Source of the DNA: an uncultured Actinomycetota bacterium
GTDB taxonomy: Bacteria; Actinomycetota; Actinomycetes; Actinomycetales; CAVURS01
Reading direction: 5' to 3'
Assembly (NCBI GenBank): GCA_963795385.1
Contig: CAWCHK010000012.1
Coordinates: forward strand, 2,443 to 66,442
Length of the DNA: 64,000 nt
Under the pieces are notes generated by a model. It saw only the letters and a list, made by a program, of their open reading frames with translations, had not been told where the DNA came from and made no database searches. Positions 19,930 to 46,419 of the stretch are shown here, piece by piece. The position numbers and the translations under genes were made by a program. Position 1 is the first letter of the stretch. Each line of letters opens with the position of its first letter.

Positions 19930-20673
19930 CTAGAGCCGCCCGGACTGGACGACGCGGCTCAGGAACTGCTGGGTCCGCGGCTCGCGCGGGTTCTCGAAGA
20001 TGTCCTGGGCCGACCCGCGCTCGAGGATCGAGCCGTTGTCGAGGAAGCACACCTGGCTGGCGACCTCCTTGGCGAAGCCCATCTCGTGAGTGGCGAGGAG
20101 CATGGTCAGGCCCCCGTGGGCCAGCTCGCGAACGATCTCCAGCACGTCGCCGACCAGCTCGGGGTCCAGGGCCGCGGTGATCTCATCGAGCAGCATCACC
20201 CGCGGCTGCATGGCCAGCGCCCGGACGATCGCGACCCGCTGCTGCTGGCCGCCGGAGAGGCTGTCCGGATAGGCCTTGGCCTTCTCCGCCATCCCCACCG
20301 ACTCCAGGAGCCGCATGCCGCGCTCCTCGGCCTCGTTGCGGTTCAGGCCAGCGACGCCGACCGGCGCCAGGGTGACGTTCTTGAGCACCGACATGTGCGG
20401 GAAGAGGTTGTAGCTCTGGAAGACGATGCCGACGTCCCGGCGCAGCGCGTTCAGGTCGACACCGGCGCCGGTGACCGTGTCGCCGTCGATCCGGATCTCC
20501 CCGCTGTCGATGCCCTCCAGGGCGTTGACGCAGCGCAGCAGCGTGGACTTGCCGGAGCCGGAGGCGCCGATCAGGCAGACCACCTCGTGCCGCTCGACGT
20601 CGAGCGAGACGCCCTTGAGCACCTCGTTGTGGCCGAACGACTTGTGGACGTCGTCGATCTCCAGGAAGGCCAT
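19930..20673 (-). CDS. Polar amino-acid ABC transporter ATP-binding protein (GlnQ-like)
   Basis: GASGSGKS, FQSYNLFPH, LSGGQQQR, DEITAALDPE, THEMGFA. Confidence 0.92.
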   Translation of the reverse strand: MAFLEIDDVHKSFGHNEVLKGVSLDVERHEVVCLIGASGSGKSTLLRCVNALEGIDSGEIRIDGDTVTGAGVDLNALRRDVGIVFQSYNLFPHMSVLKNVTLAPVGVAGLNRNEAEERGMRLLESVGMAEKAKAYPDSLSGGQQQRVAIVRALAMQPRVMLLDEITAALDPELVGDVLEIVRELAHGGLTMLLATHEMGFAKEVASQVCFLDNGSILERGSAQDIFENPREPRTQQFLSRVVQSGRL

Positions 20674-21770
20674 CAGCCGCCCGCCCTTCGCGCCGCGTCA
20701 CGGTTGATCAGGGCGTCGACGAAGCGGGCCTGGGGGATCGTGATGATGATGAAGAACGCCGCGGCCAGGGTCACTGGCGACAGGTTGAACAGCTTGCTCT
20801 GCCAGAGCGTGGCGGTCAGGACCACCTCGGCGATGCTGGCCGTGGACAGCAGCGCCGTGTCCTTCTGCAGGCTGATGAAGTCGTTCAGCAGCGGCGGGAT
20901 GACCCGGCGGATCGCCTGCGGCACCAGAACCTTTCGCAGTGTCTGGGCATAGCTCAGCCCGAGCGACCTCGCGGCTGCGCTCTGGCTGGGATGGATCGAG
21001 GCCAGGCCGGCCCGGTAGACCTCCGCGACGTACGCCGTGTAGGTCAGGGTCAGCGCGACGATGCCGAGCCAGGCGATCGGCCAGGACGCCGTGGCCGGGA
21101 ACGCCAGGGGCGCACCGAACACGACCAGCAGGATGACGACGATCGCCGGCACCGCCCGGAAGACGTCGCAGTAGACGAGCGCGATCACGCGCAGGGGCGC
21201 ACCGGCCCGGCCGGGCAGCATCCGCATGATCGCCACCAGCAGGCCCAGCAGCAGGATCAGGATCTCGGACACCACGGCGACCCAGATGTTGGTCCAGAAC
21301 GCCCGGATCATCTCTGGGAAGGCCTTGCCCCACGCGCTGGACGTGAAGAACGTGTGGGCGATGCCGCCGTCGTTGGCCAGGGCCATCAGGAGCAGCCCGG
21401 CCACGATGATCGCGGCCGCGGAGTACCCCATCGCGATCTGGGCCTCCTCGCGGCCGGCGGCCGAAGCCCGCCGGGCCGGGACGAGCTGGTCGTCGTGGAG
21501 CAGTGCGGCCCGCTGACGGGCACCCGAGAACGACTGCGCCGCAGGCGACAGCGGGTAGAGGGCCAGCAGCACGAGGACAACGCCGATGATCGTGGCCAGG
21601 GCGTTGTGGTGGTTGTAGTCGCGGATCTTCAACGCCGCAAGGACCATCAGCACGATGCCCACGACGGCCATCGCCAGGCCGGCCACCGCGAACGGGATGA
21701 CCGGCCGCGGCGGGCTCGGGGTCGGACTGGGCTGGAGCTCGTCGGTGACCAGGCTGCTCGAGGCAGTCAT
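20673..21770 (-). CDS. Polar amino-acid ABC transporter permease (N-terminally extended)
   Basis: AYVAEVYRAG..SI...Q..AARSLGL, PQAIRRVIPPLLNDFISLQKDTAL. Confidence 0.9.
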   Translation of the reverse strand: MTASSSLVTDELQPSPTPSPPRPVIPFAVAGLAMAVVGIVLMVLAALKIRDYNHHNALATIIGVVLVLLALYPLSPAAQSFSGARQRAALLHDDQLVPARRASAAGREEAQIAMGYSAAAIIVAGLLLMALANDGGIAHTFFTSSAWGKAFPEMIRAFWTNIWVAVVSEILILLLGLLVAIMRMLPGRAGAPLRVIALVYCDVFRAVPAIVVILLVVFGAPLAFPATASWPIAWLGIVALTLTYTAYVAEVYRAGLASIHPSQSAAARSLGLSYAQTLRKVLVPQAIRRVIPPLLNDFISLQKDTALLSTASIAEVVLTATLWQSKLFNLSPVTLAAAFFIIITIPQARFVDALINRDAARRAGG

Positions 21771-21780
21771 GGTGCGCCGG

Positions 21781-22674
21781 CTACTTGATCGTCCAGACCG
21801 GCACGGCCGACGGGTCGCCGCCGAACGCCGGCCCGAGGTAGCTCTTCGACAGCCCGTTCAGGGTGCCGTCACCGATCATCGTCTGGATGCCCTGGTTGAG
21901 CGCAGCCTCGTTGGCCGAGCCCTTGGGGAAGATCGCGCCGTACTTCTCACCGGTCGAGTACTGGCCGACGACCTCCAGCCTGCCGCCCGTGGACTTGGCC
22001 TCGGCCAGCACGATGGCGGTGTCCAGGAAGTCCGCGTCGACCTGACCCGAGAGCAGGCCCTGGTAGAGCGTCTGCGAGTTCGGGTAGACCTTCGCGTTGC
22101 ACTTCAGCTGGTCCTTGATGAAGGGGACCGACGTCGTGCCCGCGTAGGCCGCGCACTTCTTGCTCTTGATGTTGTCCTGGGTGACGCCGCCGCCCTTCTT
22201 CACCAGCACGCCGATGTTGGAGTCGAAGTAGGGGGTCGAGAAGTCGACGACCTTGGCCCGCTCCGGGGTGATCGAGATCTCGGCCAGCGCGATGTCGAAG
22301 GTGTTGGTGCGGCCGGCAACCAGCTGGTCGAAGGACACGTTCTTGACCGTCACCGACTTCAAGCCGGCCATGTTGGCGAGCTCGGCCGCCATGCAGTACT
22401 CGTAGCCGTCCTTGATCGACTGCGGCGTGGTGCCGTTCCACCAGCCCTGGGCCGGCAGCGTGGTCTCGACCGTCAGGGTCCCCGCCTTGGCCGGCGTGAG
22501 CTTGATGCTCCCGGTCTTGCTGGTGATCTTGCAGTTGCCGTAGCTGGCCTTGCTTCCGGATCCCGAACCGCCTGATCCCGAGCCGCTGGATCCCGAGCTC
22601 GAGCCGCCGCAGGCTGCCAGAGCCAGGGGTACGGCCAGTACGCAGGTCAGTGCCAGGGTTCGCGTGAGACGCAT
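21781..22674 (-). CDS. Amino-acid ABC substrate-binding lipoprotein
   Basis: Signal peptide with LAAC lipobox, Gly/Ser linker, ISITPERAKVVDFSTPYF. Confidence 0.9.
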   Translation of the reverse strand: MRLTRTLALTCVLAVPLALAACGGSSSGSSGSGSGGSGSGSKASYGNCKITSKTGSIKLTPAKAGTLTVETTLPAQGWWNGTTPQSIKDGYEYCMAAELANMAGLKSVTVKNVSFDQLVAGRTNTFDIALAEISITPERAKVVDFSTPYFDSNIGVLVKKGGGVTQDNIKSKKCAAYAGTTSVPFIKDQLKCNAKVYPNSQTLYQGLLSGQVDADFLDTAIVLAEAKSTGGRLEVVGQYSTGEKYGAIFPKGSANEAALNQGIQTMIGDGTLNGLSKSYLGPAFGGDPSAVPVWTIK

Positions 22675-22796: not shown

Positions 22797-23639
22797 TCAT
22801 TCGACGATCTCGCGGCGGATCGCGAGCCCCAGCTGGCGCATCCCGTCCAGGACGACGTCCAGGACATCTCCGTCATCTCCCTCAGGGTCATCGGCCTCCC
22901 AGTTGGCGATGACCGCGTACGCCAGCCGCCCGCCAGGTCCGGAGACCGTCCCGACGTCCGCGCGGATGCCCCGGTCGGTACCGGTCTTGTTGAGGAGGCT
23001 GACCGCCCGGCCGGCCGGATGGGCGAGGGGGTCGAGCCCGAAGGCGGATGCGACGAGCGAGAGATCCACCCCCAACGAGAGCCAGTCGCGGAGCTGGGCC
23101 GAGACGTCGACGCCGATGAGGGTCCCGCCGGCGACCTCGGCCATCAGGCGCGAGAGCTCCTGCGAATCCCCGCGCGAGAGGGTCGGGGCGTGCTCGGGCC
23201 GGCGATCGTCCCGCACCCGATCGAGGAGCTTGGTGGCCCGGAGGCCGAGGCGCCGGCCGGCCTCGTCGACCTCCGCGAGGCCTACCGCCTCGAGCAGGAT
23301 GTTGGTGGCCAGGTTGTCGCTGACGCTCGCCACCAGGACGGCCAGGTCCTTGACACTGAGCCGCTCGACGCTCAGGTGCTGCAACAAGCCGGAGTCGGCG
23401 ACCGGCTCGATCCCGTTGCGGCCCAGCGTCTCGTCGCCGTACTCCGGGGAGGCCGCACAGCGCCGCGCCACCTCGATCAGCAGCAGGAGCTTGCCGACAC
23501 TGGCCGTCGACAGGGTCTCGGCGGGGTCGTGGCTGGCCCGGACCGCACCCTGCGGACCCCGCAGGCAGATCGACCATCGGGGGCGGGCGTCTCGTTCGGC
23601 GACGGCTCGTACCGCCGCCTGCAGCGACCCGCTGGACAT
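22797..23639 (-). CDS. Class A beta-lactamase-fold serine hydrolase, no signal peptide
   Basis: ASVGK (SxxK), SDN and KTG motifs; TACGAT -10 six nt before the ATG (leaderless). Confidence 0.82.
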   Translation of the reverse strand: MSSGSLQAAVRAVAERDARPRWSICLRGPQGAVRASHDPAETLSTASVGKLLLLIEVARRCAASPEYGDETLGRNGIEPVADSGLLQHLSVERLSVKDLAVLVASVSDNLATNILLEAVGLAEVDEAGRRLGLRATKLLDRVRDDRRPEHAPTLSRGDSQELSRLMAEVAGGTLIGVDVSAQLRDWLSLGVDLSLVASAFGLDPLAHPAGRAVSLLNKTGTDRGIRADVGTVSGPGGRLAYAVIANWEADDPEGDDGDVLDVVLDGMRQLGLAIRREIVE

Positions 23640-23655: not shown

Positions 23656-23683
23656 TTGACTCTAGATTATAACTTTGTATTCT
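23656..23683 (+). promoter_or_regulatory. SigA-type promoter with GntR/HutC-like operator
   Basis: TTGACT-N16-TATTCT; AT-rich GATTATAAC (TTATAA core) in the spacer. Confidence 0.6.
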
Positions 23684-23698
23684 TCGCTCGTGCCTTCC

Positions 23699-24469
23699 GT
23701 GACCGCCATCGAGGACCGCCTCGCGGCCGGGGTCCAGCGGCACAGCCCCGTCCCACTGCACCACCAGATCAAGATCGCTGTCCTGCAAGGGATCGAGCAG
23801 GGGTGGCTGCGGCCCGGGGAGCAGCTGCCCCGGGAGCGCCAGCTGGCCGAGGCGCTGGGCGTCAGCCTCGCCCCCGTGCGACAGGCGATGTTGGACCTCA
23901 GCAAGGAGGGCTACGTCGACCGGACGCGAGGCAAGGGCACCTTCGTCCGCGAGCGCAAGCTGGTGGAGAAGATCCAGATCCTCGGCAGCTTCCACGCGTC
24001 GATGGAGCGACAGGGCCTGCACCCCAAGGTCACCGTGCTGTCGAGCTCGGTCGTCTCCGCCCCGGAGGAGGTCGCCGCGGCCCTGTCCCTGCGCGGCCGG
24101 TCGGTCTGGTGCCTGCGCCGGCTGGCCACCCTCGACGACACCCCGCTGGCGCTGCTCACCGCGTGGCTCCCCGCCCGCTACGCGCGCGGCATGACGGCGA
24201 GGGACCTCGGCACCGGCTCGCTGTACGACGCGCTCGCGGAGGTGCACGGGGTCGACATGACCTCGGCCGACAACCTGGTCGAGGTGGGCCGGGCGGGCCT
24301 GGACGACGCCGAGCTGCTCGGTCTCACACCGGGATCGCCGCTCCTGCGCGTCGTCGGCATCACCCGCAGCCAGGCCGGCCGGACGGTCGAGTACTCCGAC
24401 GTCCTCTACCGCCCGGAGCAGTTCCGGTTCGCCATCGAGAGCACGGCCCCTGCACGGCCCCTGCACTGA
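23699..24469 (+). CDS. GntR family regulator, HutC/UTRA subfamily
   Basis: PLHHQIK..LP.ERQLA..LGVS..PVRQA...GKGTFV plus UTRA domain; start codon approximate. Confidence 0.9.
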   Translation: MTAIEDRLAAGVQRHSPVPLHHQIKIAVLQGIEQGWLRPGEQLPRERQLAEALGVSLAPVRQAMLDLSKEGYVDRTRGKGTFVRERKLVEKIQILGSFHASMERQGLHPKVTVLSSSVVSAPEEVAAALSLRGRSVWCLRRLATLDDTPLALLTAWLPARYARGMTARDLGTGSLYDALAEVHGVDMTSADNLVEVGRAGLDDAELLGLTPGSPLLRVVGITRSQAGRTVEYSDVLYRPEQFRFAIESTAPARPLH

Positions 24470-24481
24470 CCTGGAGGAGAA

Positions 24482-26155
24482 ATGGCTAACGAGGTCTCCC
24501 TGCCCTCGGACTTCGCCGAAGGTGGACAGCTCTTCGTCCGGAACGCGACCGGCCTGGTCCGGGAGGTCTCCAAGTGGGACGCCCTGATCATGAACAGCCT
24601 GGGCATGAACGTTGCCCTCGGTGCGGTGTTCCTCCTGCTGCAGGCCCCGGGCAACTTCCCCGGCGGCAGCATGCTGCTCGCGATCGTCATCGGGACGCTG
24701 GTGATGGCGTTCACGCTCCTCTGGGTCTACGCCGAGTTCGCCGGCGCGATGCCGCGGTCGGGTGGTGACTACGTCTTCGTGAGCCGCACCCTGCACCCGG
24801 TCGTCGGGTGGCTGCTCTCGTGGAGCCAGGGCATGTGGCTGATCTTCTTCTGGATCGGCTTCAACGCCTGGTTCGCCCTGACCTTCGCCGTGCCGGTCAC
24901 GTTCACCACCATCGGTGCAGTCACCGGGCACACCGGGTTCATCGACGCCAGCAACTCGCTGCTGGCCGAGCACACGGTGGCCGGCATCACGACCCAGTGG
25001 TGGGTCATCCTGTTCGGCGCACTCCTGACCTTCGGGTTCTGCGCCGTCCTGATCTACGGCTCGCAGTCCTACTGGCGGCTGCAGAAGTGGCTCTTCGGCC
25101 TGGCCGGGCTCTGCCTCCTGCTCGTGGCCGGGCTGCTGCTCTTCCGCGGTGGCCAGGTCGCCGAGTCGTGGAACCAGTTCGCCAGCGCCAACAAGGGCCT
25201 GGCCTACGAGAACGTCGTCAGCACGGCCAAGTCGGCCGGGTTCGGCGGCACCAAGGGCTTCAGCCTCACGGCCACGATCCTGATGCTGCCGTGGGTGTTC
25301 TTCGTCGTCGGCTACGCGCAGGGCTCGGCCCAGATCGGCGGCGAGGTCAAGCGGGCCAGCCGCACGCAGTACTTCGCGATGGTCGGTGGCGTGCTGATCA
25401 ACGGCTTCGTGCTCGCGCTGATCGTGCTGCTCTACAAGCACACGGTCGGCAACACGTGGGGGAGCAGCCTCTCCTACCTGAACAACACGGCGCCGGACAA
25501 GCTCGCCCTGCCGGGTGGCCTGCCACCGAGCATCGTGCTGATGGGGAGCATGCTGACCGGCAGCGTTCCTCTGCTCCTGCTGATCGGCGTCGGCTTCGTC
25601 CTCTGGGCCCTGATGGGGACGCCGCTGTCGACGCTGCAGGCCACGCGCTACATGCTCGCCTGGTCGCTGGACCGCACGGTGCCCCAGCAGCTCGGTGAGG
25701 TCAACGACAAGTACCACACGCCGGTCAAGGCGATCCTGCTCTGCGGCGTCACCGGCGTCATCGCGCTCATCGCCCTGGTCCGGATTCCCCAGGCCAGCCT
25801 GCTCGGCGCGTTGCTCGCCCAGATCGTCGCCTTCATCGTGGTCAGCATCGCCGGGATCGTCTTCCCCTACCGGCTCCCCCAGATCTGGGAGGGCGGCGGC
25901 GGGCGGCGCATCCTCGGCGTGCCCGCGGTGACGCTGGCCGGGATCGGTGGCGTCATCGCCCTCGGCGGGTTGATGATCATGTTCATCGCCAACGACACCG
26001 TGAACGCGACCTTCGCCGTGACGCGGGGCATCTCGCTGAAGTTCATGATCGGCGTCATCGTCGTAGGAGCCATCTGGTACGCCGCGAGCTGGACGCTCAA
26101 CAAGCGTCGCGGCGTCGACCTGGCCCTCGCCTACCGGGAGATCCCGCCGGAGTGA
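24482..26155 (+). CDS. APC-family amino acid/polyamine permease
   Basis: LFVRNATGLVREVS, MPRSGGDYVFVSR, RYMLAWSLDR, C-terminal YREIPPE; many TM segments; GGAGG RBS. Confidence 0.88.
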   Translation: MANEVSLPSDFAEGGQLFVRNATGLVREVSKWDALIMNSLGMNVALGAVFLLLQAPGNFPGGSMLLAIVIGTLVMAFTLLWVYAEFAGAMPRSGGDYVFVSRTLHPVVGWLLSWSQGMWLIFFWIGFNAWFALTFAVPVTFTTIGAVTGHTGFIDASNSLLAEHTVAGITTQWWVILFGALLTFGFCAVLIYGSQSYWRLQKWLFGLAGLCLLLVAGLLLFRGGQVAESWNQFASANKGLAYENVVSTAKSAGFGGTKGFSLTATILMLPWVFFVVGYAQGSAQIGGEVKRASRTQYFAMVGGVLINGFVLALIVLLYKHTVGNTWGSSLSYLNNTAPDKLALPGGLPPSIVLMGSMLTGSVPLLLLIGVGFVLWALMGTPLSTLQATRYMLAWSLDRTVPQQLGEVNDKYHTPVKAILLCGVTGVIALIALVRIPQASLLGALLAQIVAFIVVSIAGIVFPYRLPQIWEGGGGRRILGVPAVTLAGIGGVIALGGLMIMFIANDTVNATFAVTRGISLKFMIGVIVVGAIWYAASWTLNKRRGVDLALAYREIPPE

Positions 26156-28266
26156 CGACCTCGACCGACCCGGCGGGCAGCGCCGGCCACGTCGTCGTCG
26201 TGGGCAACCTGACGATCGACGACGTGGTCCTGCCGGACGGGCAGACCCTGATGGCCCGGCTGGGCGGCAACACGGTCCACTCGGCGACGGCCGTCCTGGC
26301 CTGCGGCGTGCCCGTGGCCCTGGTGACCCGCAAGGGCGACGACTTCCCGCCGGAGGCGCTCGACGCGCTGGCCCGGGCCGGGGCCGACGTGAGCGGCGTC
26401 GTCGCGGTCGCCGGGCCGACCGTCCGCAACTGGGTGATCTACGAGGCCGACGGCCGGCGGCACTGGCTCTATCGCACGCCGCCCGGCCGGTCGGCCGAGG
26501 TCGCACCGCAGGCCGCCGACCTGTCCCCCGCGCAGCTCGACGGTGCCGCGGTGGTGCACGTCGCGGCGATGCCCCTGCCCAACGCCGAGCGCGTCGTCGC
26601 GCAGGTGCGCCGGCTCGCGCCTGGAGCCCGGATCACCCTGGACACCCACGAGGACTGGGTCGGGCCGGTGCGGGAGCGGCTGCTCGAGCTGGCCCGCACG
26701 GTGGACGTCTTCGAGCCGAGCCTGGAGGAGCTGCAGGAGCTCACCGGCGCCGCGACCGCGGAGGACGGCCTGCGGGCGCTGGCGGCAGCCGGCCTGACCA
26801 CGGCCGTCGTCAAGGCCGGGGCGGACGGCGCCTACCTGTTCGACGGCGACGCCGTGGTGCACGTGCCGGCCCTGCCGACGCGCGCGGTCGACACCACGGG
26901 CGCCGGCGACGCGTTCTGCGGCGGCCTCGCGGCCGGGCTGGCCAGCGGGCTGGACCCGCTCGGCGCGGTGGCCCTCGGCATCGTCACCGCCGGCACCGCG
27001 GTCGGTGCCTCCGGCAGCCTGCGCCTGCTGGCGACGGATCTGGACGGCCCCGGCCTGCGCGCGGCGGGGGCGGCGCAGGCGAGCCGGTCCCGTCGCCTGG
27101 GCTCGGCCGCCGGGGGGGTGGTGCGCGGCGCCGACCCGTCGATCAGCGGCAGTGACGGCGGCTCCTACGCCATCGACGTGATGCGCCGAGAGATCGCCAT
27201 GATCCCCGACGTCGTCGCGAACGCCGTCAGCGATCCGGGTGGGCGGCTGACGGCCTTGGCGAAGTCCCTTCTCGCGCAGGACATCTCACACCTCTGGCTG
27301 ACCGGGTGCGGCGACAGCGCCTTCGCCGGCCAGGCGGCCGCCCTGGCCTTCCAACGCCACACCTCGGTGACGCCGCACCCCTGTCACGCCCTCGACCTGG
27401 CGCGGTACCAGGCCCGCTTCCTGCCGGCCGGCAGCGCCGTGATGGGGGTGTCGTTCTCAGGACGGGTCGGCCGTACGACCGAGGCGCTGCTCCAGGCCCG
27501 GCGGTTCGGGCACCCGACGTACGGCTTGACCAACGCGCCGGACGCCCAGCTGGCCCGGGCCAGTGATGTGGTGGTCCCGCTCGACGTCACGACCCTGGGC
27601 TTCTCACCCGGCACCTCGACGTACGTAGCGATGCTCGGCAGCCTGCTGCGGCTGGCCGCCGCCGTCAGCGAGCTCGCCGGGGGCGACGGCGCCCTGGCCC
27701 GGGCCCTGGCCGCACTGCCCGAGCAGGCGGCGCGCACCCTGGACCTGTCGGCCGAGCCCGCTCTCCTTGCCGCGCAACGGCTTCAGGGCCGGGCGTGGGC
27801 GACGTTCCTGGGCGCCGGGCCGGGCGAGGCGACGGCCAGGTTCGGCGCCGCGAAGCTGTTCGAGGGACCACAGCAGCTCGCCGTCTCGACCAACCTGGAG
27901 GAGTGGGCGCACGAGGAGTACTTCGTCACCGGGCCTGGTGATCCCGTCGTGCTGGTCAACCCCAGCGGCGCCGGCCACGACCGCGGCCTGGAGATCCTCT
28001 CGGAGCTGCGGTACGTCGGCGCGGACGCGATCGTGGTCTCCGACCTGGCCCCGCCGGCTGGCGGCCCGCCGGGCGAGCTCTGGCTGCCCCTCAGCCCGGA
28101 CGTGCCGGAGGAGCTGTCACCGGTGACCGCGGCCCTTCCGTTGGCACTGCTGGGGTTCCACCTGGCCGAGCTGGGGGGCAAGCAGTCCTACAACTTCCCC
28201 AGCGAGGCGGCCCGGGGCGAGCACTACGACACCATCCACCGCGCGACGGTGGGTGAGCCGGCATGA
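26152..28266 (+). CDS. PfkB carbohydrate kinase fused to tandem SIS (GlmS/FrlB-like) domains
   Basis: N-half GNLTIDD, GG, DTTGAGDAF; C-half TGCGDS, SFSGRVGRTTEA, EEWAHEEY; single uninterrupted 704-aa ORF. Confidence 0.85.
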   Translation: MTTSTDPAGSAGHVVVVGNLTIDDVVLPDGQTLMARLGGNTVHSATAVLACGVPVALVTRKGDDFPPEALDALARAGADVSGVVAVAGPTVRNWVIYEADGRRHWLYRTPPGRSAEVAPQAADLSPAQLDGAAVVHVAAMPLPNAERVVAQVRRLAPGARITLDTHEDWVGPVRERLLELARTVDVFEPSLEELQELTGAATAEDGLRALAAAGLTTAVVKAGADGAYLFDGDAVVHVPALPTRAVDTTGAGDAFCGGLAAGLASGLDPLGAVALGIVTAGTAVGASGSLRLLATDLDGPGLRAAGAAQASRSRRLGSAAGGVVRGADPSISGSDGGSYAIDVMRREIAMIPDVVANAVSDPGGRLTALAKSLLAQDISHLWLTGCGDSAFAGQAAALAFQRHTSVTPHPCHALDLARYQARFLPAGSAVMGVSFSGRVGRTTEALLQARRFGHPTYGLTNAPDAQLARASDVVVPLDVTTLGFSPGTSTYVAMLGSLLRLAAAVSELAGGDGALARALAALPEQAARTLDLSAEPALLAAQRLQGRAWATFLGAGPGEATARFGAAKLFEGPQQLAVSTNLEEWAHEEYFVTGPGDPVVLVNPSGAGHDRGLEILSELRYVGADAIVVSDLAPPAGGPPGELWLPLSPDVPEELSPVTAALPLALLGFHLAELGGKQSYNFPSEAARGEHYDTIHRATVGEPA

Positions 28267-29069
28267 CGCCCGGCGCCTCGACCGGCCCCGACGCTCCCCT
28301 GGCCGAGATCGTCCCGGAGGCCCGGCGCATCGTCGACGCCGCGGAGCAGGCGCGACTGACCCTGCGGGTGCTGGGTGGCGCCGGCGTCGCCCTGCACGAC
28401 CACGTCACCGTGCCGGACAGCCTTCGACGGACGTACGGCGACATCGACGTCGTCGTACCCGCGAAGTCCACCAGGGCGACGTCGGCGGTCCTGACCGCCC
28501 TCGGCTACCTGCCGAACGAGCGGTTCAACGCGCTGCACGGCGCCCGGCGGATGCTCTTCTACGACACCGCGAACGGCCGGCAGCTGGACGTCTTCGTCGG
28601 CACCTTCGCGATGTGCCACCAGCTCGACCTGAGCCACCGGCTCGGTGAGCACGCCCGGGCGCTCGACGCCGCGGACCTGTTGCTGACCAAGCTGCAGATC
28701 GCCGAGATCAACGCCAAGGACGTCGTCGACGCGGTCCGGTTGCTGTTGTCGCACGAGGTGGCAGACCAGCAGGTGCCGCGCGACAGTCTGGAGCCGGATG
28801 TGCTGTCCCTCAAGCGGTTGCGCGACGTCACCAGCAGCGACTGGGGCTGGTTCACGACGTTCACGGACAACCTCGCGAAGGTGCGTGAGGCGGCCCCCGG
28901 CCTGCTGGACGCCCATGACGGCGAGCGGGTGAACCGGGCCATCGACCAGGTCGACGCGTCCCTGCACGACGCTCCCAAGTCGATGCGGTGGCGGGCGCGC
29001 AGCGTGATCGGCCGCAAGACCCCCTGGTACGAGCTCCCGGAGGAAGTGGAGAGAGGTGCGACTCGGTGA
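28263..29069 (+). CDS. Putative nucleotidyltransferase (Pol-beta/AbiEii-like fold)
   Basis: VLGGAGVALH...GDIDVVV...LDVF...LLTKLQ...KDVVD; ATGA/GTGA coupling on both sides. Confidence 0.65.
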   Translation: MTPGASTGPDAPLAEIVPEARRIVDAAEQARLTLRVLGGAGVALHDHVTVPDSLRRTYGDIDVVVPAKSTRATSAVLTALGYLPNERFNALHGARRMLFYDTANGRQLDVFVGTFAMCHQLDLSHRLGEHARALDAADLLLTKLQIAEINAKDVVDAVRLLLSHEVADQQVPRDSLEPDVLSLKRLRDVTSSDWGWFTTFTDNLAKVREAAPGLLDAHDGERVNRAIDQVDASLHDAPKSMRWRARSVIGRKTPWYELPEEVERGATR

Positions 29070-30017
29070 AGGACGCCAAGATCTTCTTCGCGACGGACAT
29101 TCACGGCTCGGACCGGTGTCTGCGCAAGTTCCTCAACGCCGGCAAGTTCTACGGCGTCGACGCCGTCGTGATGGGCGGTGACATCACCGGCAAGATGATC
29201 GTCCCGGTCGTCGAGGAGGGGCCGGGCCGGTACTCCGCGCACCTGTTCGGTCGCCGGCGTGAGGTCGACTCGGACGGGTTGGCCGGGCTGCACAAGTTCA
29301 TCGCCGACGCGGGCTTCTACCCGCATCCGATGACGCCGGACGAGATGGCCGCGCTCCGGGAGGACCCCGCGGCGGTCGAGGAGCTCTTCCGCAAGCTGAT
29401 GAACGAGACGATGAGCCGCTGGATCGACCTGGCCGAGGACCGGCTGGCCGGCACCGGGATCGAGTGCATCTTCGCGCCCGGCAACGACGACCCGTTCTTC
29501 ATCGACGACCTCCTCTCCAGCAGCGACTCGGTCGTCAATCCCGACGGCCGGGTGGTCGAGCTGCCGGGCGGCTACTCGATGATCTCCGTGGGCTACTCGA
29601 ACCGGACGCCCTGGGCCTCGCCCCGTGAGCTCGACGAGGCCGACCTGCGGGCGGCCATCGACGCCGAGGTGGCCAAGCTCCCCGACCCTCGCGGGCGATC
29701 TTCAACCTGCACGTCCCGCCGAAGGACACCCCGATCGACCAGGCCATGGAGCTCGACGCCGACTTCCGGCCGGTGGTCAAGGGCGGCTCCCCGTCATCAC
29801 CGGCGTCGGCAGCTCGGCCGTGCGGGACGCCATCGCGGAGTACCAGCCGATGCTGAGCCTGCACGGTCACATCCACGAGTCCCGCGGTGAGGCCCGGATC
29901 GGCCGCACCCTCGCGCTCAACCCGGGCAGCGAGTACAGCGAGGGCGTCCTGCGCGGCGTCATCGTCAACCTCTCAGCGAAGAAGGGCCTTCGTGGCTACC
30001 AGCTCGTCTCCGGTTGA
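29066..30017 (+). CDS. Calcineurin-like (Icc-related) metallophosphoesterase, two apparent -1 frameshifts
   Basis: TDIHGS, GGDITGK, PGNDD, NLHVPP (second frame), LHGHIHE and NPGS (third frame). Adding one C at 29686-29688 and one at 29789-29792 restores a single ORF. Confidence 0.82.
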
Positions 30018-30561
30018 GATCGCCGTCATCGGCTCGGCCCGGATCGGCCCCGGCGACCCCCGCCATGCCGACGCCGTACGGCTCGGGTCGGCGCTGGCCG
30101 ACGCCGGCTGGACGGTGATGACCGGTGGGTACGGCGGCCTGATGGGGGCGACCGCCTCCGGTGCCGCCGCGCAGGGCGGCCACACGGTGGGCCTGCCGAT
30201 GAGCGCGTGGGACCACCTCACCCCGGACCCGCACCACGTCGAGCTCCGCTGGAGCCAGGACTACGCCGAGCGGATGCGCCACCTGCTGGCGGCCACCGTG
30301 GTCGTCGCACTGCCCGGTGGCGTCGGGACGCTGGCCGAGGCGAGCTCGGTCTGGGCCGCGGTCCAGACCGAGCCGGGCTCGGCCTCGTTGGTCCTGGTGG
30401 GCGCGGGCTGGAGCCGGCTCCGCGACGCCTTCGGTGCGGAGCTGGTCATCGACGCCGCCGACCTCGCGCTGGCGCACGCCGTCGGCTCGGTCGACGAGGT
30501 CGTGCCGCTGCTCGAGCGGCTGCTGGCCGACCCGGACCAGACCCTGTCCGCTCGCGGCTAG
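30014..30561 (+). CDS. LOG/SLOG family protein (nucleotide phosphoribohydrolase-like)
   Basis: IAVIGSAR, TGGYGGLM, ERM, LPGGVGTLAE. No in-frame start near the 5' end; TTG at 30014 is one base out of frame (probable indel). Confidence 0.75.
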
Positions 30562-40050: not shown

Positions 40051-41150
40051 ACGGCGGCCTGCGGTCGCGGCTGATCACGGGCTTCGTCGTGGTGACGGCC
40101 CTGACCGTCCTGATCTCCTCAGTGACGGCGGTCATCGGTGCGCTGTTCGTCTACACCACGCATCCGATCGGCTCGGCCGAGTTCGGCCGGAGGGTCCTGT
40201 CGACCTGGCCGTTCTCCTCGATGTCGGACCAGGACCTGGTCTGGGTGGTCGTGGTCGCCGGGCTGGGCCTGCTGGTCATCGCGGTGGGAGCGGGCTGGCT
40301 CGTGGCCCAGCGCATGCTCCGCCCGGTGCGGACGCTGGCCCAGGCGGCCGAGCAGGTCGCCCGGGGGGACCTGGCCGTGCGGCTGCGGCCGACCGGCAAC
40401 GACGAGCTGGCCCAGCTGGTCGCGACGTTCAACGCGATGACCTCCAACCTGGACCGGTCGATGAACGAGCTGCGGCGGATGGAGGCCCAGTCGCGGCGGT
40501 TCGCCTCGGACGTGTCGCACGAGCTGCGCAGCCCGCTCGCAGCGATGACCGCGGTGACCGAGGTCCTGTCGGACGAGGCGGCAGACATGTCCGGGCCGGC
40601 CGGGCAGGCCTCCCGGCTCGTGGTCCAGGAGATCGCGAACCTCGACCGCCTGGTCAACGACCTGATCGAGATCTCCCGGTTCGACGCGGGGACAGCGGTG
40701 CTCGACGTCGACGTCGTGACGGTCGCGTCCGCGGTACGCGCCTGCCTCGCCCTGCGCGGCTGGTCCGCGGCCGTGACGGTCGAGGTCCCGGAGGACCTCC
40801 AGGTCACCCTCGACCGGAGGCGGTTCGACGTGATCGTGGCCAACCTGGTCGGCAACGCGATGCGGTACGGCGAGCCGCCGGTGCAGGTGGCCGCCTGGTC
40901 GGTGCCGGATCGGGGCGAGGTCGTGCTGACCGTCGCCGACCACGGGCCGGGCATCGCCCAGGACGCCCTGCCGCATCTGTTCGAGCGGTTCTACAAGGCC
41001 GAGGCGGCGCGCACCCGGTCGGGCGGCAGCGGTTTGGGGCTGGCCATCGCCCTCGAGAACGCCCGGCTGCACGGCGGTGACCTCCTGGCGGCCAACCGCG
41101 TGGACGCGGCCGGTGCCGTGTTCACGTTGACGCTCCCGGCAGCGACCTGA
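40047..41150 (+). CDS. HAMP-domain sensor histidine kinase
   Basis: Two TMs with a short loop, HAMP, SHELRSPL, NLVGNA, DHGPG, GSGLGL. Confidence 0.92.
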   Translation: MNGGLRSRLITGFVVVTALTVLISSVTAVIGALFVYTTHPIGSAEFGRRVLSTWPFSSMSDQDLVWVVVVAGLGLLVIAVGAGWLVAQRMLRPVRTLAQAAEQVARGDLAVRLRPTGNDELAQLVATFNAMTSNLDRSMNELRRMEAQSRRFASDVSHELRSPLAAMTAVTEVLSDEAADMSGPAGQASRLVVQEIANLDRLVNDLIEISRFDAGTAVLDVDVVTVASAVRACLALRGWSAAVTVEVPEDLQVTLDRRRFDVIVANLVGNAMRYGEPPVQVAAWSVPDRGEVVLTVADHGPGIAQDALPHLFERFYKAEAARTRSGGSGLGLAIALENARLHGGDLLAANRVDAAGAVFTLTLPAAT

Positions 41151-41191
41151 CACGTCGACGTCGAGCGGCCGACGTGGAGATCGACGAGGCG

Positions 41192-41659
41192 TCAGGCCAA
41201 CGGGACGTCGAGGTGCATCCGCAGGCCGGCGCCGAACTCCGTGTCGGCGCTCCCGTCGACCACGAACCCCGCGGCCCGGTAGAACCCGAGCGCATGCTCG
41301 TTCGCCGTCACCTCGACCCGGGTGGCTCCTTCGGCAGCGGCCTGCGAAGCGATGGCCTGGATCAGGGCGCGGGCCACCCCTCGCCGCATCCACGCCGGCT
41401 CCACGAACAGGTCGTCCAGCTCGAGAGCGGTGCGGGTCGGCTGCGTGCTCGCGAAGCCGACGACGGTGCCGCCCGCCAGCGTCGCTACCCAGGCCCGCCC
41501 GCTGCCGGCCAGCTCCTCGGAGAGCTGGAGCGCCTCGGGGTGAGCGATCAGTGCAGCCCGGTCGCCGTCGTTGGACAGGGAGGCCCGGCGGAACACCCCT
41601 TCCATGGCCGGGGTGTCACCTGCTCTGGCGACCCGGACCTCGACCAGGCTCACCAGCAC
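41192..41659 (-). CDS. GNAT family N-acetyltransferase
   Basis: LFVEPAWMRRGVAR, N..ALGFY...GF. Confidence 0.85.
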   Translation of the reverse strand: MLVSLVEVRVARAGDTPAMEGVFRRASLSNDGDRAALIAHPEALQLSEELAGSGRAWVATLAGGTVVGFASTQPTRTALELDDLFVEPAWMRRGVARALIQAIASQAAAEGATRVEVTANEHALGFYRAAGFVVDGSADTEFGAGLRMHLDVPLA

Positions 41660-41741
41660 ACCCTAGTCCGCGCTACGAGACCCCAGCGTCTTCTCAGCGT
41701 CGACCCCGTGCTCGCGTGGACGACCTGTAGCCTGGGCCGAC

Positions 41742-41802
41742 GGCGGAGGGGCTCGCCGACAACCGCCGCGGCTGCTCGCCGGTCACGACCAACGGTCCCT
41801 AC
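41742..41802 (+). ncRNA. Fluoride (crcB) riboswitch, variant
   Basis: GGCGgaGGGGCtCGCC..AACCGC......ACCAACGGTCCCTAC follows the GGCGAUGG..UCGCC..AACCGC..GCUGAUGRC.CCUAC pattern; lies between a TAGCCT -10 and crcB. Confidence 0.7.
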
Positions 41803-41829
41803 CTCAACTGCGTGCCGGAGGTAGTCGAC

Positions 41830-42295
41830 GTGCCCGAACCGCGAGTGCCACGTGTACGCCTGGAGTGGGACCTCGTGCTCGCTGCGGCGGCCGGCGGTGT
41901 CGTCGGGGCCGAATCGCGTTACGGCGTGGGGCTTCTGGTGCCGCATACGCCGCGCCAGTTCCCCTGGTCGACGGTGGCTGATCAACGTCTCGGGCTGCCT
42001 GCTCATCGGCATCCTCATGGTCACGCTCCTCGAGCTCGCCACTCCCCACCGCCTGGCGCGGTCGTTCCTGGGCGTCGGCATCCTGGGCGGCTACACGACG
42101 TACTCGAGCTTCAGCGTCGACGCACAACGCCTTCTCCTGGCTCACCGGCCCGCCGTTGCGCTCGCCTACGTCGTCGTGACGGTGCTGGGCTGCGCGGCCG
42201 CGGTCTGGTTGTCCACCACCGCAACCACGGTGGCCGGCCGGGCCGTCATCGAGCGCCGGGTGAGGCGCCGCGGGAGTGGAGGGACGGCGCCGTGA
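41830..42295 (+). CDS. crcB: Fluoride channel Fluc/CrcB subunit 1, apparent +1 frameshift at ~41976
   Basis: GGVVGA..RY, FPWST/LINVSG, GILGGYTTYSSF. Confidence 0.82.
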
Positions 42296-42657
42296 CGATC
42301 CTGATGATCGCTCTCGGGGCCGCGGTGGGCGCACCCGCGCGGTATCTGAGCGACCGGGCGATCCAGTCCTGGCACCGGACCGTCTTCCCGTGGGGCACCC
42401 TGACCGTCAACGTCGTCGCCTCACTCGTCCTCGGCATCGTCGCGGGGGCGGGCTCGGCCCTGGACCCGGATCTCGCGATGCTGATCGGGACCGGCTTCTG
42501 CGGTGCACTGTCGACCTACTCGACGTTCAGCTACGAGACGCTGCGCCTGGCCCAGGGTGGCTTCCGGCTCTCGGCGGCGGCCAACGTGGGCATCTCGCTC
42601 GTCGCCGGCGTCGGCGCTGCTGCGCTGGGCTGGTCCGTGGGTGTCGCACTGACGTGA
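42292..42657 (+). CDS. crcB: Fluoride channel Fluc/CrcB subunit 2
   Basis: GAAVGAPARY, FPWGTLTVN, GFCGALSTYSTF..E. Confidence 0.9.
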   Translation: MTILMIALGAAVGAPARYLSDRAIQSWHRTVFPWGTLTVNVVASLVLGIVAGAGSALDPDLAMLIGTGFCGALSTYSTFSYETLRLAQGGFRLSAAANVGISLVAGVGAAALGWSVGVALT

Positions 42658-43827
42658 GCACCGCCGTGAGCAACGCCGTCGTGGTCGGGCGAGCCGCCCA
42701 TCATCCTCAGCATCGGGACGCCGCCGGAGCGCAGGAACCGGACCACGAGGGCGAGCGCCACCAGCAGGAAGACGATGTTCAGCACGGTCGTGTAGTTCCA
42801 GGTGACGCCGGTCTCGCCGACCTTGGCCGAGCGCTCGGTCGGGGACCAGCCCGAGACCGCCGAACACCAGCTCGACGACGTAGCCGGCGACGACCATGGT
42901 GGCGTAGAAGATGCCGAGCAGCACCAACATCATCCGGGTGCCGTAGTACTTCCGGTAGATCACCAGGATCGGGAGGATGATCAGGTCCGCGAAGACGAAG
43001 GACACCACGCCGCCGAAGCTGATGCCGCCGTTCCACAGCACGCCGGCCAGCGGCACGTTGCCGATCGAGCAGACGAAGCTCAGCACCGCGATGACCGGCC
43101 CGACGACGGGCCCCCAGACCTTGCTCGCGAGTGAGTGATCGGTGAGGAACACGTGCTGCCAGAAGGACTCGGGCACCCACGCCCCGACGGCGCCGGCGAT
43201 CAGCAGGCCGATGACGATGTCGCGAATCACCGCCGCCCACTCCATCACGAAGATGTGGCTGACCGCGGTGTAGCCGTCCCTGCTGCGCGAGTCGGCCCCG
43301 AGAAGCCGCCCTCGGACCGGATGGACATGTCCATCGCAGCGTGGCCCTCCATCGACCCGGCCAGTCCCCTGTCGGCCTGCTCGCGCGCCGCGTCGATCAG
43401 GCGCTCGCGGACGAAGATCCGGAAGGCGACCGCCAGCAACACGATCATGATCGGGCCGCCCACGAACTCGGCCAGGGTGAACTGCCAGCCGAGCAGCAGG
43501 GCCAGGATCACGCCCAGCTCGATCACCAGGTTGGTCGAGGCGATCTCGAAGACCATGGCCGAGGTGAAGCTCGCACCCTTGCGGAACAGCGAGCGGGCCA
43601 GGGCCACAGCGGCGTACGAGCACGAGGAGGATGAGGCGCCCAAACCCGTTGCTATCGCTAAGGTTCGCGGCCGATCGTCTCCCAGCAGCCGCGCCGATCG
43701 TCTCGCGGCGTACGACGGCCTGGATCACTGCCGACAGTGCGAAGCCCAGGATGAGTGACCAGGTGATCTGCCAGGTCATCGACCCAGCCACACCGAGCGC
43801 GTGGCCGAGCGCGTCGAGGACCGCCAC
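42531..43827 (-). CDS. ArsP/DUF318-type permease, three apparent frameshifts
   Basis: SSSCSYAAVA, ASTNLVIELG, SFVCSIGNVPL and FADLII motifs in alternating frames (shifts ~43695, ~43290, ~42840); 3' end uncertain because it overlaps crcB2. Confidence 0.75.
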
Positions 43828-43829
43828 GG

Positions 43830-44201
43830 TCAGTCCCCCTCGGGCGCGGCGATCGTCAGCAGCTGGCGCAGGCAGTGCTCGAGCAGCTGGTGGGGGAACT
43901 GGTCGCTGAGCCGGTAGAAGACGATCCGGCCCTCCTTGCGGAACCGCACCATCCCGGCCGTCCTCAGCAGCTTCAACGCGTACGACACCTGGTCCTCGTT
44001 GACGTCCAGCGCGAGCGCCAGGTCACCGACGCAGAGCTCCTCGGCCGCGACCAGGGCGAAGAGGACCCTGGAGCGCACCGGGTCGGCCAGCATCCCGAGC
44101 AGGCCCGCCAACCGCCCGGCGTCGTCGACCGACAGCAGGTCCGCCCGCGCCACGGCGACCCGGGTCGCGTCGACCGGGTGGTCGTGATCCAGCGGTGCCA
44201 T
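43830..44201 (-). CDS. ArsR/SmtB metal-sensing regulator
   Basis: N-terminal DHDHP, LADPVRSRVL, ELCVGDL, C-terminal EHC. Confidence 0.88.
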   Translation of the reverse strand: MAPLDHDHPVDATRVAVARADLLSVDDAGRLAGLLGMLADPVRSRVLFALVAAEELCVGDLALALDVNEDQVSYALKLLRTAGMVRFRKEGRIVFYRLSDQFPHQLLEHCLRQLLTIAAPEGD

Positions 44202-44207
44202 GCCGCC

Positions 44208-44267
44208 CTCCGCATCTCCGAATCTCCGGACTCGTAACCTCCGTATGATCGTACGGAGATACGGAGG
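44208..44267. promoter_or_regulatory. Repeated CTCCG(n)AT / TACGGAG elements, probable ArsR operator array
   Basis: ctccgcat-ctccgaat-ctccgga and the palindrome CTCCGTAtgatcgTACGGAG plus a further TACGGAG. Confidence 0.5.
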
Positions 44268-44272
44268 TCCGG

Positions 44273-45619
44273 TCAACGGCCGCCCCGGCGCACCTCCTCG
44301 AACCCTCCGTCGGGCCGGCGCACGAGCTGACCGGTCTCGTGTCCGTGCTCGGCGACGTCACGGTCCCGGTCCTGGAGACCGAGGCAGACGCCTCGGGTCA
44401 CGGCGTAGGCCAGGACCGGGCCGGCCACGAGAGCGACCCGGAGGATGTCGACCTGGGTCTCGAACGAGACGTGGAGGTGGGTCGCGATCACGTCGCTGCC
44501 CGCGGCCGCCCAGAGCGTTCCGTAGAAGACCAGACCGGCGACGCCGAGCGCCGTTCGATGCGGGGCGTCCCGCGGCCGGTCGAGGAGGTTGTGGTCCCGC
44601 CGGTCCCCGGTGATCCTCTCCTCGATGAACGGGTAGGCCACGATGACGGCCAGGAACAGGCCGACCACCACCATCGGCACGAGTACGGCGAGCGGCCAGG
44701 TCCCACCCGGCCCGGTGACCTCCCAGTGCGACGGCACCAGTCGCAGCGCCCCGTCGAGGAAGCTGGTGTACCAGTCGGGTTGGCCCCCGGCCGAGGCATC
44801 GGAGGGAGACGCCGGCCCGTTGAGCCAGACCGGCGCGACGGTCAGCGTCCCGGCCAGTCCGAACAGCAGGCCGACCGTCGCGAAGAACAGGCCGGCCGCT
44901 CGCACCGCTGCGCCGATCCAGGGCAGGCCCACCACGTTGTCCTCGGTCCGCCCGGGCCCGGCGAACTGGGCCGGCTCGTGCTGGGCCGCCAGCCTCATCC
45001 GCACCGCGATCACCAGGCCGAGCGCCAGCGGGACGAGGAGCACGTGCAACCAGTAGAGATGGGTGAGGATCCGGCTCGGGAACTCACCGCCGAAGAGCCA
45101 CCCGGTGAGCAGCCGGCCGACGAACGGGAAGCCGATCGTGATGCCCTCGACGATGCGCTGCCCGGTCCCGGCGAGCGTGTCGTCGGGCAGCCCGTAGCCG
45201 CTCCAGCCCGCCGCCAGGGCGAGGACGAAGATGACGCCGAGCAGCACCCACACCCAGCGCCGCGGGCGCCGGAAGCCACCGGTGAAGAAGGCGCTGAGCA
45301 TCTGCAGCATCAGGGACGCCAGCAGGGTCAGGGCCGCCCAGTGGTGGGCCTGGCGCATCAGCAGTCCCGCACGCAGGTCGAAGGAGATCCGCAGGGTCGA
45401 TGCGTACGCCCTCGACATCTCGACGCCCCGGAGCGGGGCGTAGCTGCCGTGATAGATGATCCGGTCGTTCGAGGGGTCGTAGTAGAGCAGCAGGTAGACA
45501 CCGGTGACGACGAGGACGGCCAGGCAGGCCGCGGACACCGTGCCGAGCAGGAACGTCCAGTGGACGGGGACCGCCCTCGCTTCGAGACGACGCCGCAGCC
45601 GTCCCAGCCTCGTCCGCAC
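44273..45619 (-). CDS. Stand-alone cytochrome b (QcrB) paralogue, degenerate heme bH site
   Basis: P.HWTFLLG, RQAHHWAA, FFTGGFRRPR, GY.LPDD, QPDWY, YPFIEER.TGD...HNLLDRPRDAP; start 45619 (GGAGG RBS) or 45628. Confidence 0.88.
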   Translation of the reverse strand: MRTRLGRLRRRLEARAVPVHWTFLLGTVSAACLAVLVVTGVYLLLYYDPSNDRIIYHGSYAPLRGVEMSRAYASTLRISFDLRAGLLMRQAHHWAALTLLASLMLQMLSAFFTGGFRRPRRWVWVLLGVIFVLALAAGWSGYGLPDDTLAGTGQRIVEGITIGFPFVGRLLTGWLFGGEFPSRILTHLYWLHVLLVPLALGLVIAVRMRLAAQHEPAQFAGPGRTEDNVVGLPWIGAAVRAAGLFFATVGLLFGLAGTLTVAPVWLNGPASPSDASAGGQPDWYTSFLDGALRLVPSHWEVTGPGGTWPLAVLVPMVVVGLFLAVIVAYPFIEERITGDRRDHNLLDRPRDAPHRTALGVAGLVFYGTLWAAAGSDVIATHLHVSFETQVDILRVALVAGPVLAYAVTRGVCLGLQDRDRDVAEHGHETGQLVRRPDGGFEEVRRGGR

Positions 45620-45660
45620 GACCGTCACCTCCCGAGTTCACGAACGTCTCTCACCCTGTA

Positions 45661-45687
45661 GACGAGACAGCCCGGCCGGACGTGACA
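45661..45687 (-). promoter_or_regulatory. ECF41-type promoter TGTCACG-N16-CGTC
   Basis: 16-nt spacing and near-exact match to the TGTCACA-N16-CGTC ECF41 consensus, upstream of the qcrB paralogue. Confidence 0.6.
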
Positions 45688-45729
45688 TCGGCGATTCCCT
45701 CCAGGCTCGGTCGACCCAAACGACACGGC

Positions 45730-46396
45730 TCAGACGCGAGAGGCCCGGACCAGCGCGGGGAGGTCGGCCATGTCGTCCATCAAGGTGGTCTCGGGACCGC
45801 GGAGCCGGTCGGCGGGGACCAGGCCCGTGACGTAGGCGATCGAGCGCATCCCGGCCGCGCGCGCCGCCGCCAGCCCGGGGGGCGAGTCCTCGACGACCAG
45901 GCACCGATCGGGGGGCACCCCCATGACCGCGGCGGCGTGCAGGAACAGGTCCGGCGCGGGCTTGCCACGCTCGACGTCCTGCGCGCTGAACCGGCGCCCC
46001 TCGAACGCCTCGGCCAGCCCGACCCGGCCCAGGTTCTTGACGACCTTCGCGTGCGACCCGTTGGACGCGACGGCATGCTCCACGCCGAGCGCGGTGATGG
46101 CCGCGATGGCGTCCGCCACCCCCGGGACCGCCTCGAGCTCGGTCGAGAAGGCGTCCTCGTACCAGCTCTCGTACGGCTCGTCCCAGCCGTCCTCGAGCGC
46201 GCCGCCCGAGCTCGGCCTCGACCGCCGCTCGCCAGTAGTCGTCGGTGCACCCGGCGAAGCGGTCGATCAGCACCTCCGGAGTCACCGCCCATCCGAGGTC
46301 GGTCAGCACCGCCGCTCCGACCCGGGCCGCGATCGGCTCGGAGTCGACCAGCACCCCGTCGCAGTCGAAGATCACCAGACTGATGTCGTCGCGCAT
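45730..46396 (-). CDS. HAD-family phosphatase, apparent frameshift at ~46200
   Basis: FDCDGVLVDSE in one frame; VASNG, KPAPD and VEDS..G in another. Confidence 0.8.
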
Positions 46397-46419
46397 CGCT
46401 TCCCTTCCATCCTTGGGGC

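Follow-up and report, generated by a model that had tools for sequence, protein, structure and literature searches.

A permease, a metallophosphoesterase and a nucleotidyltransferase recur as a unit in catabolic operons: a candidate nucleotide-tag switch on a transporter

We analyzed a 64,000-nucleotide stretch of the genome of an uncultured member of the Actinomycetota (contig CAWCHK010000012.1 of assembly GCA_963795385.1, referred to here as the window), which carries on its forward strand, at 23656..30561, an operon for a GntR regulator, an APC-superfamily permease, a PfkB kinase fused to a SIS isomerase/deglycase (PfkB::SIS), a nucleotidyltransferase (NT), a metallophosphoesterase (MPE), and a LOG-family protein. 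The operon is not one pathway but two modules, the first consisting of the permease, MPE, and NT and the second of GntR, PfkB::SIS, and LOG. The first three very probably form a three-part unit in which MPE is docked on the permease, whichever mechanism holds. As a tentative mechanism we propose a switch in which NT tags Thr23 of the permease with a nucleoside monophosphate (NMP), docked MPE erases the tag, and uptake is switched. We give an even chance to the wider proposal that the trio is a new three-component transporter class of bacteria and archaea, an APC carrier that has no ion-coupling residues and whose N-terminal threonine is cyclically tagged as a gate or as an ATP-driven stroke, and that the copy in the window feeds an undescribed salvage of oxidised purine ribonucleosides (ribosyl-allantoin or guanidinohydantoin type).

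The permease, MPE, and NT genes travel together

Scanning species genomes for NT yielded 65 loci. All six genes occur in the order of the window at 22 of these, whereas a lack of such conservation would have refuted the proposal made in the first-pass annotation of this DNA; the remaining loci have no LOG or are truncated at contig ends. Clustering of open reading frames (ORFs) found MPE at 56 and the permease at 53 of the 65, the same pattern was seen in 80 metagenome loci, and NT relatives at the 50% level number 1803.

Profiles of the three trio proteins, applied with thresholds chosen in advance of each search (1e-15, 1e-40, and 1e-60), matched an identical set of 26 of 201 Actinomycetota genomes, one of which (G282) is unpublished. 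Among 121 genomes of the Chloroflexota, NT was found in 20, MPE in 21, and the permease subfamily in 20; 99 had none, and 19 of the 22 positive genomes had all three. Copy numbers track one another (5/5/6 in G098 and 2/2/2 in five genomes), and only 1 of 322 genomes has the permease subfamily with neither partner. Nearest-neighbor agreement between the three genes across 39 loci was 0.49 to 0.67, compared with 0.08 expected by chance, and in a quick tree of the permeases the SIS-type permeases form one clade (Shimodaira-Hasegawa-like approximate likelihood ratio test support, 100). At one locus (L064, genome G044) just a C-terminal fragment of NT is left and no MPE was found, which suggests that its members decay together. 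We set aside the apparent MPE::APC and NT::MPE fusions as evidence, because each is a single sequence and most have linkers that look like frameshift-type junk, P0305 and P0308 being the only clean-looking cases.

The trio also occurs in guanidine, choline, hydantoin, polyamine-type, and sugar clusters that have no PfkB, SIS, or LOG. Of 8 loci scanned, 6 have a guanidine-I riboswitch immediately upstream of MPE-APC-NT; the two exceptions are L059, which starts within MPE, and L016, a SIS-type locus. These aptamers share a core with the copy that precedes the UAAP genes; RF00442 also includes non-guanidine variants. Behind the riboswitch-linked trios come type III glutamine synthetase (the L062 member scores above the TIGR03105 cut-off) and often UAAP1/2, urea carboxylase, and amidase. 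Guanidine is a simple cargo and these operons have no kinase; NT and MPE therefore appear to serve transport rather than one conjugate. Elsewhere, the choline dehydrogenase GbsB, above its cut-off, lies beside the trio, the archaeon Halobellus limi has MPE, NT, and permease genes beside choline-type dehydrogenases, and the clusters of paralogous trios contain E1 dehydrogenase, hydantoinase, FGGY kinase/BtpA, Gfo/Idh oxidoreductases, arginase/amidase, GcvT/choline, and deacetylase genes. The linked regulators are just as varied (GntR, DeoR, LacI, IclR, TetR, or the riboswitch). In the alphaproteobacterial guanidine-I operons L050, L054, L055, L057, L060, and L063, the type III glutamine synthetase gene comes right after NT.

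The nucleotidyltransferase

NT (28263..29069, forward strand), the proposed writer, is a lone 268-residue domain. It has the fold, the GG, the DxD, and the third Asp of Pol-beta nucleotidyltransferases; G38, G39, D60, D62, D109, K143, and Q145 hardly vary in a 134-row alignment (G38 and D60 are present in 134 rows each, D62 and D109 in 133 each), and neither does a W/R/G/W-rich C-terminal segment. The predicted structure (predicted local distance difference test [pLDDT], 94) matches MenT1 (Z 12.0; root-mean-square deviation 3.7, 170 residues aligned), ANT(2'') (Z 11.6; 3.5, 154), and LnuA (Z 10.1; 3.1, 138), all of which transfer NMP to hydroxyls. With ANT(2'')-Ia, LnuA, and MenT1 it shares the fold and the catalytic GG/DxD/D/K residues, but it is only 15 to 21% identical to them, has an extra conserved C-terminal segment (residues ~238 to 261), and has a dedicated permease and phosphoesterase as partners. 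NT used by itself as the query gave no sequence match among solved structures, and an Atlas search returned generic nucleotidyltransferase clusters only.

In five clusters (P0152, P0154, P0155, P0156, and P0158), one member of which is named Candidatus Micrarchaeota, NT is joined to a phosphoribosyltransferase domain of the purine type and a C-terminal region without a Pfam match; the added domain may be a sensor of phosphoribosyl pyrophosphate or a nucleotide for the writer. At L127:999-2864, a cNMP-CBS-DUF294 nucleotidyltransferase gene directly precedes an NT gene. An analogy with ActP/DUF294 found no support in 10.1101/072470, whose matching passage names DUF2946 rather than DUF294.

The permease and the phosphoesterase

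The permease (24482..26155, forward strand; PF13520) belongs to a subfamily that, by the genome profiles, almost always co-occurs with NT and MPE. Its best solved relative is GkApcT (E 4.7e-16), and it shares the APC fold with the GkApcT/ApcT cationic amino acid transporters but adds two cytoplasmic elements. One is the N-tail motif FVRNATGLVR (residues 18 to 27; 24533..24562), which contains Thr23 (24548-24550) and follows the pattern F-x-R-x-[AS]-[TS]-G-L-V-[RK], with the R, the T/S, and the G each present in 93 of 93 full-length copies. This motif occurs in 1 of the 22,054 open segments of the window's genome and is absent from its 7 other APC-like proteins. The other is the C-tail LAYREIPPE (26126..26155), in whose E-[ILV]-P-P-E pattern the proline is fixed. 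The presumed substrate helices, transmembrane segments TM1, TM6, and TM8, are variable (conservation mostly 0.2 to 0.5), and median identity is 0.25 for the permease, compared with 0.39 for NT and 0.42 for MPE. The TM5 lysine of GkApcT, which is the proton-coupling residue of ApcT and GkApcT, is gone: in a low-identity alignment of 39 permease copies it aligns to Ala in 14 and Gly in 9, and Lys is outside the five commonest residues. Charged residues stay below 30% throughout the hydrophobic cores of these 39 diverse copies, the cores having been defined by hydropathy, which is biased against charge.

MPE (29066..30017, forward strand), the proposed eraser, is a calcineurin-like protein of the Icc-related type. 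Its metal ligands (DxH, GD, GN, H, and HxH) are near-invariant in intact relatives, the window copy being frameshifted. Its nearest folds are the uncharacterised proteins aq_1956 and TT1561, and LpxH and Rv0805 give weak profile matches. It shares the fold and metal ligands with all four, but has GNDD in place of GNH, an insertion of ~95 residues, and a predicted pocket for the permease tail.

MPE most often adjoins the permease, and the permease-MPE pair was therefore chosen for complex prediction, using the proteins of L002 (whose permease is 88% identical to that of the window) and alignments built in this analysis. The pair scored 0.71, the best of three controls scoring 0.00; the mark for this score is attained by 116 of 157 pairs with solved complexes and by 2 of 215 mismatched pairs, a calibration that is only rough for the alignments used here. 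The runs agreed in at least 87% of contacts, with partner pLDDT of at least 86. The predicted interface comprises, from the N-tail, inner loops, and C-tail of the permease, residues 16 to 27, 89 to 93, 396 to 398, and 549 to 557 and, on MPE, the metal-site residues 13, 140 to 141, 269, and 271 to 272. The permease C-tail (549 to 557), which provides the lowest-error contacts, pairs with MPE residues 17 to 29 (a helix), 295 to 296, and 313 to 317, the last strand of MPE being among these contacts, and because of this pairing the MPE metal site likely faces the permease N-tail. MPE is thus predicted to dock on the two cytoplasmic tails of the permease. Conservation of the permease residues is 0.66 at the interface and 0.36 elsewhere, a difference that is not independent of the model because the model saw the same alignment. 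Structure searches with MPE or the permease found no similar solved complex. The conserved end of NT, WYELPEE, resembles the permease tail YREIPPE and, to judge from that resemblance, might compete with it for the same MPE pocket.

A candidate nucleotide-tag switch

For the proposed switch we infer target, nucleotide, and direction as follows. NT would add a nucleotide, likely AMP, to the invariant permease Thr23 beside the inner gate, MPE docked on the tails would remove it, and tagging and untagging would turn uptake on and off in a carrier that seems to have no ion coupling of its own. Within the operon of the window, the trio would import the cargo of the second module. Such a switch would resemble AmtB-GlnK-GlnD and GlnE, in which a reversible NMP tag, with writer and eraser activities, controls nitrogen uptake or assimilation; by this analogy the trio may act as a switch of the GlnD type that has been transferred to the transporter. 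It would differ in that writer and eraser are separate proteins, the eraser is calcineurin-like rather than of the HD type, there is no PII protein, and the tag would sit on the transporter, on Thr/Ser rather than Tyr. No PII protein or GlnD architecture was seen among the recurring neighbor clusters and the other annotated neighbors, which do not amount to a scan of every neighbor.

Several observations weigh against this proposal. The complex score is the model's own confidence, obtained from our own alignments; the placing of Thr23 at the metal site is our step and not an output of the model; and MPE conservation differs only slightly between interface and remainder (0.62 and 0.54). Thr23 could be conserved for binding alone, and the closest structures to NT modify small molecules or tRNA, not proteins. 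The co-occurrence counts include kin that are not independent, only 7 to 22 candidates were scored per genome, and NT neighbors were the source of the APC profile. There are also exceptions: G057 has a permease with an intact motif, but neither NT nor MPE was found there; NT was not found in G116, nor APC in G137, all three cases lying near contig ends; and a Thermomicrobium roseum plasmid has APC and MPE, with no NT match on plasmids.

The proposed switch has to be set against readings in which NT and MPE act on something else. They might act on a soluble molecule, NT tagging the cargo or making a nucleotide signal and permease-bound MPE hydrolyzing the product, with the N-tail controlling MPE, so that the system would work by trapping or as a transceptor. 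This would suit the closest folds, ANT(2'') and LnuA, which adenylylate small amine-bearing molecules, as well as the NT-phosphoribosyltransferase fusions in five clusters, and docking of MPE on the permease fits it equally well. We nevertheless judge it rather unlikely, given that NT and MPE are more conserved than the permease even though the cargoes bear no chemical relation to one another (guanidine lacks a hydroxyl), that every permease copy is accompanied by an NT and an MPE of its own, and that the varied regulators leave no shared signal receptor visible. The near-obligate 1:1:1 retention goes beyond what would be expected for an optional regulator and, with the replacement of the TM5 lysine by Ala or Gly and the absence of a charged core residue at 30% or more, could instead point to a primary transporter on an APC scaffold that spends one nucleotidylation of Thr23 and its removal on each transport cycle. 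Such an ATP-driven stroke has no precedent and would consume two phosphoanhydride bonds each time; the NT gene in some cases lies far from that of the permease (in the Chloroflexota genome G041), the core definition is biased against charge, and uniport with metabolic trapping is a simpler account of a missing coupling residue. We regard it as distinctly unlikely.

The first-pass annotation had proposed a single linear pathway in which five enzymes dismantle an imported amino acid/sugar/nucleotide conjugate, such as an ADP-ribosylated amino acid. The fixed order at 22 of 65 loci, the translational coupling, and the single promoter agree with this, MPE resembles NDP-sugar and phosphodiester hydrolases, and LOG could split released AMP. 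Against it stand the many NT/MPE/permease loci without PfkB, SIS, or LOG, including the kinase-free guanidine-riboswitch operons, and the lack of an obvious role for a nucleotidyltransferase in a degradative chain; we consider it very unlikely. The assignment of NT and MPE to the pathway's enzymes accordingly fell, both accompanying the permease into such clusters and MPE being predicted to bind it. A nucleotide-bearing or ADP-ribosylated substrate found no specific support, the informative neighbors pointing to ureide/allantoin chemistry. What remains plausible of that proposal is the handling of an imported sugar-nitrogen conjugate by PfkB, SIS, and LOG, with NT and MPE outside the catabolic chain. 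Finally, the top fold match of NT is MenT1, and 1 of 131 NT members touches AbiEii at E 0.004, as might befit a toxin-antitoxin or defense pair with NT as a MenT/AbiEii-type toxin and MPE as its antidote; the strict tie to a single subfamily of permeases and to clusters of catabolic genes, and neighbor maps that show no AbiEi/MenA partner nearby and no defense contexts, make this hardly credible.

The second module and its cargo

The kinase domain of PfkB::SIS (26152..28266, forward strand) keeps GAGD and is nearest to ribokinases. Its match to fructoselysine 6-kinase (the FrlD equivalog NF007321; E 7.5e-16) reaches 58.4 bits, well below the cut-off of 247. The double-SIS part keeps the equivalents of GlmS Glu488 and His504 and has no C-terminal Lys, as expected of a deglycase from the roles of these residues in GlmS. 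LOG (29992..30561, forward strand; 189 amino acids; PF18306/PF03641) conserves GGVGTLAE and R87 in 20 rows, and thus has the PGGxGTxxE motif and catalytic Arg of LOG phosphoribohydrolases; PF18306 is above its cut-off, and TIGR00730 and NF058542 are below theirs. PfkB would phosphorylate the sugar of a sugar-nitrogen conjugate, SIS would isomerise an Amadori-type ketosamine phosphate, LOG would cut the N-glycosidic bond (in the ureide case, the stable N-glycosyl-urea bond), which would free the nitrogen compound and a sugar phosphate, and a pathway intermediate would be sensed by GntR-UTRA.

The gene set recalls frlABCDR of Escherichia coli, which comprises an APC permease, a PfkB kinase, a SIS deglycase, and a GntR-UTRA regulator; all four types are present in the operon. 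Unlike frl, the operon has no FrlC epimerase, its kinase and SIS are fused, LOG, NT, and MPE are added, all its matches are below family cut-offs, and allantoin genes neighbor some relatives.

These comparisons leave two candidate cargoes, which we hold level and regard as possible, if doubtful. One is a ribosylated ureide or hydantoin derived from oxidised purine nucleosides and feeding allantoinase. Allantoinase is present in 13 of 33 SIS-bearing loci and in 0 of 32 others, in two phyla and several arrangements (TIGR03178 was above cut-off for the single member tested), and the allantoinase-bearing loci also have racemase, allantoicase, HbpS-like, NCS1, PucR, DUF1989, or IF-2B-like isomerase genes. 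A related hypothesis in PMC12623156 invokes allantoinase-like breakdown of guanidinohydantoin from oxidised guanine, in a passage that mentions neither ribose nor phosphoesterases. Evidence against a ureide is that 20 of the 33 SIS loci, including the window and its closest relatives, have no allantoinase; that in G002 and G003 an allantoinase-racemase-allantoicase cassette is unlinked from the operon, has its own NCS1-type permease, and, in the operator scan, lacks the GntR operator; and that no racemase was found in the genome of the window, whose assembly is 82% complete.

The other candidate, a matter separate from the switch, is an Amadori-type glycated amino acid or amine as in frlABD, the allantoin genes being mere neighbors. 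The frl-like layout speaks for it, as do the weak fructoselysine 6-kinase match, the SIS residues (Glu and His kept, the GlmS lysine gone), and the SIS loci without allantoinase; against it are the scores below every named family cut-off, the absence of LOG from frl, and the recurrence of the allantoinase linkage in two phyla and three arrangements.

At L016, L024, L034, L077, L084, and L086, DUF1989 proteins distinct from UAAP1/2 lie beside allantoinase in place of allantoicase, and their position makes them candidates for a guanidino/ureido hydrolase in hydantoin breakdown. The allantoinase gene of the window's genome (G000 C9:257515-258910) is frameshifted in the assembly, as is MPE.

Operon organization

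ORF checks and family scans confirmed six co-directional genes of the families given by the first-pass annotation, with Pfam-type matches to GntR (PF00392) plus UTRA (PF07702), AA_permease_2, PfkB plus SIS, NTP_transf_5 (at its cut-off), Metallophos (weak), and SLOG cluster 4; none of the six proteins reached a named NCBIfam cut-off. The single promoter was likewise recovered: a promoter scan found one sigma-70-like promoter (0.3 expected), at 23656..23683 on the forward strand, with -35 TTGACT, a 16-nucleotide spacer, and -10 TATTCT, in a layout conserved in relatives. Between its hexamers lies a conserved near-palindrome, AGATTATAACTT (23664..23675), which has a matching site in 17 of the 19 relatives scanned and is the top-scoring site genome-wide (37.2 bits). 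It is likely bound by the operon's GntR/HutC-type regulator (23690..24469, forward strand; 259 amino acids). The first-pass annotation had described a HutC-like operator; the site is centered on TTATAA and differs from the classic HutC consensus. The next-best sites lie mostly in one A+T-rich stretch of contig C14 (~40900 to 49800) within this 72% G+C genome, which came to light as operator false positives and is possibly a horizontally acquired island.

Because the spacing from promoter to GTG recurs in relatives, the most likely start of GntR is GTG 23690, with a leaderless transcript. The last five genes had been described as overlapping by about 4 nucleotides, which is correct for three junctions (APC/PfkB, SIS/NT, and NT/MPE) but not for MPE/LOG. 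The Arg codon CGT that supplies the GTG of LOG is kept in 31 of 34 LOG-bearing junctions, compared with 31 of 665 other Arg codons of the same MPE genes, and we therefore place the LOG start at GTG 29992, inside the MPE gene, with an overlap of 26 nucleotides. The first-pass annotation was silent on two 1-nucleotide gaps, near 29691 and 29789, that split MPE over three frames. These are likely assembly or sequencing errors, because MPE is intact in the same-genus genomes G002 to G004, the additional bases are present in related soil contigs, and frameshifts affect 8 of the 61 loci of this assembly that could be tested.

Rfam gave no match in the window or in 8 further loci, and only tRNAs in another 7. 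On the reverse strand, 50 nucleotides from the GntR start and divergent from the operon, lies a gene (22797-23639) for a cytoplasmic protein of class A beta-lactamase fold (PF13354, below all bla cut-offs), and beyond it are genes (19930-22671, reverse strand) for the ATPase, permease, and binding protein of a polar amino acid ABC transporter, below named cut-offs. The beta-lactamase-like gene and the ABC binding protein had no match in the 65 related loci and are thus outside the conserved unit.

Conclusions

By its kinase equivalog score, its architecture, and its partners, the operon falls outside the frl, GlnD/PII, and MenT/AbiEii systems, respectively. In line with the earlier statement that the gene set matches no described pathway, we found no description of the trio or its mechanism in the full-text literature searched, a body that excludes most subscription journals and supplements, and we know of no direct reversible nucleotidylation of a prokaryotic membrane transporter. 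The trio is present in ~13 to 17% of the sampled Actinomycetota and Chloroflexota genomes, and in archaea. If the proposal is true, it would represent a common, overlooked control or drive of nutrient uptake in soil microbes, in guanidine, choline, hydantoin, and sugar pathways alike, and, now that a single residue, a single docking tail, and a version inducible by guanidine have been named, the mechanism is testable in a few experiments. The second module, for its part, may reveal microbial recycling of oxidised RNA nucleosides, a question tied to the origin of free guanidine, for which PMC12623156 puts forward such routes as hypotheses.

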